This document shows positions 29,508 to 30,923 of a stretch of 32,000 bases of DNA, piece by piece. A program made the translations under genes and the position numbers. The stretch comes from Candidatus Harpocratesius repetitus (GTDB taxonomy: Archaea > Asgardarchaeota > Lokiarchaeia > Sigyniarchaeales > Promethearchaeaceae): NCBI GenBank assembly GCA_021498095.1, contig JAIZWK010000001.1, positions 1,440,001 through 1,472,000 of the forward strand. Direction: 5' to 3'. Each line of letters begins with the position of its first letter. Position 1 is the first letter of the stretch. Under the pieces are notes generated by a model. That model made no database searches. It was not told where the DNA came from and worked only from the letters and a program-made list of their open reading frames with translations.

Positions 29508-30377
29508 ATGGATGCCATGGATCAATTGATGGAACTGGAAAGAAATAGTGCTTTTGCGAATAAGTTAAATGATGTTAGATCATTTTTAAATAATAAAAAA
29601 GTCATAATTGCATTTTCTGGTGGTAAAGATAGTGCTTTATTAACCTATCTTGCTTCAAAATATGCAGAAAAAGTTCTAGCTGTTTTTATTCATTCAGAAT
29701 TATCACCAAGTATAGAAATATTTCAAGCAAAATCGTTTTGTGAATATTATAATATTCCCTTTCGCTCCATTTCAATTCCATTATTAGGAATTCAAATGAT
29801 TCAAAAAAACAATTCTAACCGATGTTATTACTGTAAACAGCTTTCATTAAATAACTTAGAAGAACTTGCAGAAGATATGGGTTATAATTTAGTAGTTGAT
29901 GGAACTAATTATTCTGATTTAAATTTAGATAGACCCGGCCTTCAAGCATTGAAAGAAAGTCGTGTAGAATCTCCTTTCGCATTAGCATCAATATCAAAAC
30001 AAGATATTATCGAAATAAGTCGTTTGCTAAATCTGATTTCACAGCACTATACTTCTCAAGCTTGCTTAGCTTCTCGAATTCCTTTTAATCTTCCTATTAC
30101 GCCAGAATTATTACAGAGTATAGATAAAAGTGAAGCATTCATCCGCTCCTTACTTCCTAATAAGCATTCATCTTTACGTGTTCGAATTCAGCAATTGTTA
30201 CCCACCAAACAACTACTCGCTCGAATCGAAGTGGGCTCAGATTTTTACAAACTTCTTTCAAACGCTGATACCCGCGCAAAAATTGTAAATAAACTGCGTG
30301 AATATGGGTTTACTTATGTTACATTGGATTTAGAGGGATTTCATAGTGGTTCAATGCACAAAATGCTAGATGTTTGA
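29508..30377 (+). CDS. larE: ATP-dependent sulfur transferase LarE (PP-loop)
   Basis: FSGGKDS, RCYYCK, DGTNYSD..DRPG, ACLASRIP and YVTLDLEGFHSGSM motifs. Confidence 0.92.
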   Translation: MDAMDQLMELERNSAFANKLNDVRSFLNNKKVIIAFSGGKDSALLTYLASKYAEKVLAVFIHSELSPSIEIFQAKSFCEYYNIPFRSISIPLLGIQMIQKNNSNRCYYCKQLSLNNLEELAEDMGYNLVVDGTNYSDLNLDRPGLQALKESRVESPFALASISKQDIIEISRLLNLISQHYTSQACLASRIPFNLPITPELLQSIDKSEAFIRSLLPNKHSSLRVRIQQLLPTKQLLARIEVGSDFYKLLSNADTRAKIVNKLREYGFTYVTLDLEGFHSGSMHKMLDV

Positions 30378-30423: not shown

Positions 30424-30439
30424 GGAAAAAAAGGAAAAT
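30424..30439 (-). terminator. U-rich archaeal terminator after the SECIS-like hairpin
   Basis: AUUUUCCUUUUUUUCC run on the minus strand. Confidence 0.4.
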
Positions 30440-30455
30440 CCCCTCATACAGAGGC

Positions 30456-30491
30456 GTCAGATTTTCTCCAAGGTTTATAGAAAATCATCAT
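30456..30491 (-). ncRNA. candidate SECIS element (eukaryote/Loki-type kink-turn core) in a 3' UTR
   Basis: The minus strand reads A-UGAU GAUUUUCU AUAAACCUUGG AGAAAAUC UGAC. This gives tandem G.A core pairs, a perfect 8-bp helix and AAA in the apical loop, starting 17 nt after the stop of a TGA-containing ORF. Confidence 0.72.
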
Positions 30492-30507
30492 TCAACGGAT
30501 TTTTTGT

Positions 30508-30807
30508 TTATGCTTCGACCAGCACTAAGCGTTTAAATGCTGCCCAGCCTGCAATGTCTATTTTTGCTTGAGTCCATAGATGTGCTAAGCGTTTATCCAA
30601 ATAAATCGGATACTTAAATTTCTCTACTTTTTTTATTTCAAACGCATTTTTATCTTGAACCATTTCTTCACTGGCTGGTGCTACAACATTAACCACTTCT
30701 GTGCCACATCAACCGCGGTAAATTCGTTGAAACACAACCAAAATTGGTTTCTCGAATTCTTTTGCTTGTTCTTCCATGTATGCGGAAGCCTCAGAGCTAA
30801 TATGCAT
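30508..30807 (-). CDS. candidate selenoprotein, HesB/IscA-like small protein with G-U-C-G motif (99 aa)
   Basis: ATG 30807 MHISSEASAYMEEQAKEFEKPILVVFQRIYRG-TGA(30711-30709)-CGTEVVNVV...LVEA*. SD-like GAGTGA upstream and a SECIS-like hairpin downstream. Confidence 0.75.
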
Positions 30808-30923
30808 AAGTGATCATATCACTCAAATTAATGATACATTTTAAGGTTGTGCATTGTAATTGAACGTTCAAGCCGTAAAAAGAATTATAAAAAATAGGAT
30901 AGGAATGATGAGATTAAGATTTA

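Follow-up and report, generated by a model that had tools for sequence, protein, structure and literature searches.

A probable 99-residue selenoprotein gene with a vicinal Sec-Cys pair, a lokiSECIS-type element and an IscA-like predicted fold in a Lokiarchaeia genome

The locus and its annotation

A minus-strand frame of 99 sense codons, 30807..30508 (-), lies in the window (the whole stretch of DNA analysed, 32 kb in length), running from an ATG at 30807-30805 to a TAA at 30510-30508. Its sole in-frame interruption is a TGA at 30711-30709, which takes the place of codon 33, is followed by TGT and stands in the context Y-R-G-[TGA]-C-G. The first-pass annotation of this DNA had described a frame of this length with its single TGA at this codon, as the sequence confirms, and had regarded the 62-aa GTG open reading frame at the locus as the 3' part of that frame, a view with which the ORF list agrees, 30508..30696 (-) being all that the ORF lister gives here. 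The features of the gene are as follows.

30508..30807, minus strand: putative selenoprotein coding sequence, 99 codons plus TAA; start, length and frame are common to orthologues and paralogues
30709..30711, minus strand: UGA codon 33, predicted to be read as selenocysteine (Sec); invariant column of the 27-sequence alignment A2, Cys in some homologues
30706..30708, minus strand: TGT codon for Cys34, the vicinal partner of the predicted Sec33; the column reads C, S, G or a second U in relatives

Public records annotate the C-terminal piece alone, which is 62 aa long here and appears in Lokiarchaeia records as a 'hypothetical protein' of 58-71 aa; the RefSeq entry of Candidatus Lokiarchaeum ossiferum is among those in which only the C-terminal halves are annotated, as hypothetical proteins. 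This habit of calling just the downstream piece would suit a locus at which the TGA is a true stop, that is, a pseudogene or two unrelated small ORFs of which the 62-aa product alone is made, but the comparisons described in the next section make such a reading extremely improbable. The TGA itself is also found in an independent source, as a metagenome contig from a separate study (run X4) is about 94.5 % identical over the region, with 26 differences in 474 nt, none of which falls at 30709-30711; the possibility, raised at the outset, that other reads might show TGG, TGC or TGT at this place is thus not borne out by that contig.

Immediately upstream, at 30809-30823 (-), AGTGAT-ATG-ATCACT makes up an inverted repeat with 6-bp arms around a 3-nt spacer, its end lying one base short of the start codon. 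The translated upstream frame of the closest orthologue, L005, suggests that part of the repeat, ATATGATCA, is common to both genes, and the repeat might act as an operator, be a ribosome-binding feature or form a 5'-UTR hairpin.

Homologues and conservation around the UGA codon

A six-frame search that ignored stop codons revealed three more paralogues in this closed genome of 4.36 Mb, making four family genes in all, and about 30 homologous loci in 19 genomes (this one and 18 others of the phylum), nearly all of them with exactly one in-frame TGA. Within the same taxonomic family 12 of 13 genomes have this protein family, and it occurs in a few others of the same order, class or phylum. In the homologues the TGA lies 29-37 codons from a plausible start, within Y-R-G-U-C-G or variants such as U-S-G, and the only invariant columns of alignment A2 are Sec33, Gly35 and Leu94.

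Over codons 1-32 dN lies well below dS, as it does in the downstream part, with dN at 0.1-0.5 and dS saturated in most pairs (the upstream part of L001 vs L005 gives dN 0.17 and dS 2.23), and on these comparisons both halves of the frame are judged to be under purifying selection. Were the TGA a true stop, the upstream 32 codons would hardly be kept in frame across genera under such constraint, nor would the TGA stay fixed amid variable neighbours; there are also Cys homologues of full length, and the full-length structural model described below is one domain, with a pLDDT of 95, in which a hairpin spans the TGA.

The Cys homologues emerged from a profile search of 1.8 billion representative proteins, which returned three kinds of sequence: fragments ending or beginning at the TGA, full-length proteins with 'W' in its column, and full-length Cys-Cys forms. 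Three of the last (P0009, P0013 and P0023) translate by table 11, and L030 also has Cys at the Sec column, whereas those database 'W' forms that were checked on DNA proved to be TGA called with code 4. This exchange of predicted Sec with Cys at the column of codon 33 is the classical Sec/Cys signature. Conservation on both sides of the TGA and homologues with Cys at position 33 had been named beforehand as marks of a real selenoprotein, and Trp homologues as a sign against one; the alignment and the dN/dS comparison bear out the first, the four Cys sequences the second, and the only 'Trp' forms found are the code 4 readings.

The forms taken by the family hairpin include U-C, C-C, U-U, U-S and U-G, and some relatives read U-C-G-P. 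One of the paralogues in this genome (L004, G000:C1:2668775-2669080 (-)) has two adjacent in-frame TGA codons in the context K-G-U-U-G, from which a vicinal Sec-Sec pair is predicted, and it has a strong element of its own in the 3' UTR (40.2 bits with the family model R1 described below). Database relatives called as 'WW' (P0028, P0039 and P0040) suggest that there is a U-U subfamily.

Two sets of more distant sequences were also observed. The first is a 112-aa protein of the same genome (L055:1480-1815, equivalent to G000:C1:1280886-1281194 (+)), which has the same layout (N-terminal 'LIISPAALSHI', then 'FPIYVD') with no Cys or Sec at the hairpin and scores 18 bits to PF01521; on its sequence this is a redox-dead, IscA-like or DsrR-like distant paralogue. 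The second consists of the long proteins P0010 (4241 aa), P0047 (1539 aa) and P0065 (5358 aa) together with P0057 (410 aa), each having 4-13 repeated matches to profile positions ~20-60, the hairpin region, and these could be repeat proteins of a similar beta-hairpin or spurious matches.

The 3' UTR and its lokiSECIS-type element

The sequence that follows the stop codon can be folded into a structure of several parts, listed here with the run of T residues that comes after it.

30451..30497, minus strand: lokiSECIS-type element in the 3' UTR, predicted from the family model R1 (47 bits), the VhuD-trained model R2 (19.2 bits) and covariation
30491-30488, minus strand: AUGA of the element, followed by an unpaired U at 30487
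30486-30479 and 30467-30460, minus strand: arms of the helix
30478-30468, minus strand: 11-nt loop AUAAACCUUGG (AUAAAC..G), read from the sequence
30459 and 30458-30457, minus strand: U and GA that follow the helix
30435..30503, minus strand: whole 3'-UTR structure from the MFE fold, enclosing the SECIS hairpin and a side hairpin
30503-30497 with 30441-30435, minus strand: lower helix AAAAUCC with GGAUUUU (MFE fold)
30454-30442, minus strand: side hairpin CCUC/GAGG (MFE fold)
30426..30432, minus strand: run of seven T directly after the structure, with T-runs after the element in most homologous loci

The element begins 19 nt past the TAA stop, and its stem is an 8-bp helix, or a 9-position stem if the U.U position is counted, below a loop that is A-rich at its start and ends in G. 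The lokiSECIS was described by Mariotti et al. in 2016 as comprising AUGA, a 9-nt stem, an 11-nt loop with an A-rich start and a final G, and GA, located near the stop codon (PMC4989117), and every one of these published features is seen in the window element. A pattern finder recovered the same layout, 4-50 nt 3' of the stop codon, for 24 of the 30 family loci and failed to find it at the Cys form L030; nor was a SECIS element found behind L053 and L054, which like L030 are distant Cys forms. The 7-T run is likely to be an archaeal oligo-T terminator.

In a MAFFT alignment of 20 elements the AUGA, AAA and GA are invariant. Across the eight helix pairs 92.4 % of cells are paired, with double changes in every pair, a result reached by none of 500 shuffles and compared with 30-53 % in slid registers, but these counts of pairing and covariation are biased upward because the hairpins were chosen by a finder that required pairing, and the unbiased tests are the R2 model and the held-out matches. 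R2, whose training was limited to the SECIS elements that follow TGA-containing VhuD genes in eight genomes, has its top match in the window at 30451-30497 (-), with an E-value of 0.037, while in 94 kb of other family loci all ten of its matches fall on predicted elements. R1, which was built from the aligned family elements, has four matches in the whole genome, one behind each paralogue, including L002, on which it was not trained; it also recognises family members kept out of its training, as well as the SECIS of this genome's Sec-containing VhuD gene (25.7 bits). It has no match in the SelD 3' UTR, as is expected since SPS genes carry a different (type II) lokiSECIS.

Compared with the lokiSECIS elements of HdrA-VhuD, VhuU and PrxL (PMC4989117; Huang et al. 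2024, PMC11227280), the core is the same and the models cross-recognise both ways, but here the element is part of a three-part structure, in which a covarying lower helix encloses it and a further side hairpin lies 3' of it, and it serves a gene family previously unlinked to lokiSECIS. This three-part layout recurs, with other helix sequences, in single-sequence folds of orthologues and paralogues.

In the same region Rfam matched no SECIS family and gave only sub-threshold C/D-box snoRNA matches, such as SNORD30 at 30452-30495; the snoRNA reading was rejected, the C/D-box matches reflecting the common kink-turn motif (AUGAUGA...CUGA). A loose pattern scan of the genome, which found 90 matches vs 33 in the shuffled genome, is too unspecific to be used alone.

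One close Cys-Cys relative (TGC TGT), on an ENA metagenome contig (L052:117-473), has kept a SECIS-like hairpin that scores 38 bits with R1 and in which UUGA has replaced AUGA; this relative has apparently exchanged Sec for Cys recently, its SECIS being altered or in decay. A separate observation concerns L002, L023-L029 and L031, where a single gene uses TGA twice, as the Sec codon (around codon 33) and as its final stop, the latter lying a few nt before the SECIS (4 nt in L025-L027). Such genes pose the problem of distinguishing one UGA from the other.

Selenocysteine machinery and the genetic code

The genome encodes tRNA-SeC(tca), SepSecS (443 bits), a SelD gene with an in-frame TGA, an EFSec/SelB candidate (247 bits, over the cut-off) and a PSTK-like kinase whose 94.8 bits fall short of the family cut-off. 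The tRNA-Sec, SepSecS, EFSec and PSTK that the first-pass annotation had wished to see confirmed are thus represented. TGA terminates 355 of 2112 long open frames of the genome (17 %) and is therefore an ordinary stop, and a genome-wide reassignment under codes 4 or 25 was rejected.

A narrower alternative is that a standard tRNA (Trp, Cys or Arg) decodes this TGA, or that it is recoded by some route other than Sec. The databases do hold 'W' versions of the protein, but the 'W' versions checked on DNA are TGA called with code 4, the 3' UTR carries a SECIS of the VhuD class, Sec and Cys exchange at the column, the Sec machinery is complete and TGA is a common stop elsewhere in the genome; we consider this alternative very improbable. 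The earlier proposal that the UGA is decoded as Sec is instead supported by the conservation, the Cys homologues, the SECIS and the machinery. In that proposal UGA-33 would be recoded by the archaeal/eukaryal-type pathway of tRNA-Sec, PSTK, SepSecS, SelD and EFSec, and the recoding signal would be the eukaryote-like kink-turn SECIS (lokiSECIS) of the 3' UTR.

Predicted fold

An AlphaFold2 model made with the family alignment has a pLDDT of 95.3, and in it the loop joining strands 21-32 and 35-46 consists of Sec33 and Cys34. Structural comparison of this model with VIA-align gives IscA, SufA and DsrR at Z 8.0-9.8 over 85-90 of the 99 residues (1S98 at Z 9.8, with 90 aligned), and the top ten rows are all of the Fe-S-biogenesis type (IscA, SufA, DsrR and putative Fe-S biosynthesis proteins), the next row having a Z of only 3.2. 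Foldseek likewise matches the IscA/SufA/DsrR fold (E 2e-3, TM ~0.6), and 'FeS cluster biogenesis' clusters of AFDB are matched as well. We therefore predict with high confidence that the protein is an IscA/SufA-type beta-sandwich with the Sec-Cys pair at the tip of a beta-hairpin, and the IscA/HesB-type resemblance first noticed in the N-terminal sequence agrees with this fold. A homodimer prediction with natural database sequences scored 0.02.

Among the sequence searches, Pfam gave no family at E<=10, and hence no PF01521 match for the window protein, and a PDB sequence search with the family profile gave no match. An hhalign comparison of the family with canonical Asgard IscA, which is weak (probability 7 %) and was used solely for locating the hairpin, aligns G-U-C-G to within one residue with the G-G-C-A-G hairpin of IscA. 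The A-type carriers IscA, SufA and HesB (PF01521; PDB 1S98, 1R94, 2D2A and 1X0G) have the same fold (Z 9.2-9.8, rmsd 2.5-3.0 over 85-90 residues), the N-terminal 'M-x-I-T/S-x-x-A' helix start in common and their reactive residue at the tip of the central hairpin, but they combine a single hairpin Cys with a C-terminal C-G-C, where the window protein has Sec with a vicinal Cys and no C-G-C. It ends ...RLVLVEA, with no C-terminal Cys, whereas the alignment of canonical Asgard IscA sequences (A4) ends C-G-C-G-K.

With the frame, the conservation, the SECIS and the fold taken together, 30807..30508 (-) is very probably a genuine 99-residue selenoprotein gene in which UGA-33 is recoded to Sec and whose product has an IscA-like predicted fold. 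The protein would be an A-type-carrier beta-sandwich lacking the C-terminal CGC, in which a glycine-flanked Sec33-Cys34 at the tip of the central hairpin would stand about where IscA has its first cluster-binding Cys, and this branch of the family would have expanded to the four paralogues of the genome, one of them Sec-Sec.

Relationship to known selenoprotein families

The profile NF041239, which defines the 'CC/Se motif family (seleno)protein', aligns residues 2-95 of the window protein on profile positions 4-87 of 91 with an E-value of 9.8e-8 and 32 bits, a score that does not reach the curated cut-off of 40 bits. It matches 21 of the 27 family members (best E 8.8e-12), and gives no match at the loci when searched on the raw genome, with the TGA unread. 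The bacterial CC/Se family (NF041239, Moor_selen_rel; Pfam CC_Se_fam PF28096) likewise consists of proteins of about 100 aa with a vicinal Cys-Cys or Cys/Sec, and the motif of these small proteins is present here, as U33-C34 in the window copy and as CC, UC and UU forms among its relatives. The two differ in that the bacterial family uses an in-frame bacterial SECIS, whereas the window copy is archaeal and has a eukaryote-like SECIS in its 3' UTR. On the sequence comparison the protein is clearly homologous to the bacterial CC/Se motif family, as a distant and divergent archaeal branch that lies outside the curated boundary, and the link to CC/Se-motif proteins drawn in the first-pass annotation is upheld by the NF041239 matches.

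Another archaeal selenoprotein with which the family might be compared is that of the Methanococcales (TIGR01911, motif UxGP), which we take to be related to HesB/IscA. Its SECIS is of the GAA/A methanogen type, however, where the window gene has a lokiSECIS, and TIGR01911 matched none of the 27 members (E<=0.01) and none of the four genome loci (E<=10). It carries the HesB-like name in the table of a 2026 review, in which CC/Se is listed as a bacterial selenoprotein family without an archaeal mark (PMC13188914).

That review puts the number of archaeal selenoprotein families at 11, with seven in Asgard archaea (PMC13188914), and the Asgard selenoproteins listed there and in three Asgard surveys are HdrA, VhuD, VhuU/FrhA, SelD, PrxL, AhpF-N and DsbA-like proteins (PMC4989117, PMC9723677, PMC11227280, PMC13188914). 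The present family is absent from the Asgard and archaeal lists of Mariotti 2016, Sun 2021, Huang 2024 and the 2026 review, in keeping with the earlier suggestion that it could be an unannotated addition to the Loki selenoproteome; what is new relative to these lists is its archaeal occurrence, the family of bacterial (seleno)proteins being already known. In this genome four family genes, each with its own SECIS, compare with the one Sec-containing VhuD gene and one Sec-containing SelD gene that were found, and since the family is found in 12 of the 13 related genomes the selenoproteome of the Lokiarchaeia would appear to have been under-counted.

The family offers more than 25 new examples of strongly covarying, eukaryote-like SECIS elements within a distinctive three-part structure, together with a natural series of U-C, C-C, U-U, U-S and U-G pairs on an IscA fold and one apparent recent Sec-to-Cys conversion. 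Such material should be useful for studying the evolution of Sec insertion and of Sec/Cys exchange near the origin of eukaryotes.

Gene neighbourhood and possible functions

One neighbour of the window gene bears on its possible role.

29508..30377, plus strand: LarE-type PP-loop sulfur transferase, convergent neighbour (TIGR00268, 222.8 bits against a cut-off of 150)

LarE is convergent with the orthologue group of the window gene in eight loci from three genera, and a ferritin gene lies near this group in three loci; the window copy adjoins both LarE and ferritin and is without a thioredoxin neighbour. A gene for a WCxPC thioredoxin, divergent or tandem, adjoins the family gene in 11 loci, which belong to the other paralogue groups and to more distant homologues. 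The neighbours of paralogues L003 and L004 were also examined and were uninformative.

Our tentative reading of function is that the exposed selenol may be a redox or chalcogen-transfer centre coupled to thioredoxin. In its cycle the selenol would form either a Sec-Cys selenenylsulfide or a mixed bond to a partner protein or molecule, and thioredoxin would recycle it. Mammalian thioredoxin reductase has a C-terminal G-C-U-G redox centre, in which a vicinal Cys and Sec are flanked by glycines. The window protein shares with it a glycine-flanked vicinal pair, for which an 8-membered selenenylsulfide ring is possible in principle, but in the reductase the order is C-U and the pair lies on a flexible tail, whereas here the order is reversed (U-C) and the pair sits on a structured hairpin, and the proteins are unrelated. 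Among the relatives the second residue of the motif varies between C, S, G and U, and a vicinal selenenylsulfide therefore cannot be the universal mechanism.

The same gene, with the same Sec decoding, might instead encode a carrier of an Fe-S cluster or a soft metal, in which a cluster or metal bridging two subunits is bound by their Sec33 and Cys34, much as IscA and SufA use three Cys. The predicted fold and the position of the hairpin Sec, within one residue of the hairpin Cys of IscA by hhalign, would fit such a carrier, as would the Cys-rich, A-type-carrier-like C-terminal tails of some distant relatives (L022, P0029, P0041, P0049 and P0064), the ferritin neighbour in three loci and a LarE neighbour with a three-Cys pattern. 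A canonical PF01521 protein was moreover not found in the genome (best 18 bits), and a sample of 81 genomes from the phylum yielded PF01521 in only 3. The window copy, however, is missing the C-terminal CGC ligands, Sec is the one invariant ligand residue and the thioredoxin linkage suits redox chemistry better, and so we regard a carrier as possible but rather unlikely. A broader and more speculative proposal, which we think unlikely to hold as a whole, is that Lokiarchaeia lack canonical A-type carriers and use this expanded Sec-containing IscA-fold family in their place, with Sec as an Fe-S(e) or metal ligand or as a Se/S donor.

The LarE neighbour also invites the idea of a persulfide or perselenide relay, in which the same Sec-decoded protein hands its chalcogen to the adjacent PP-loop sulfur transferase. 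The structural matches include DsrR (Z 8.3), which has the IscA fold and belongs to sulfur metabolism, and LarE adjoins orthologues in all eight of the loci noted above, but its convergent orientation means that the two genes are not co-transcribed, the linkage may be synteny inherited among relatives and the other paralogue groups are without LarE, which leaves the relay improbable beside the redox or chalcogen-transfer centre favoured here.

The LarE homologue at 29508-30377 (+) has a C-Y-Y-C motif and a third Cys in 'SQACLASR', which we presume to be the 3-Cys pattern of cluster-dependent, non-sacrificial LarE enzymes.
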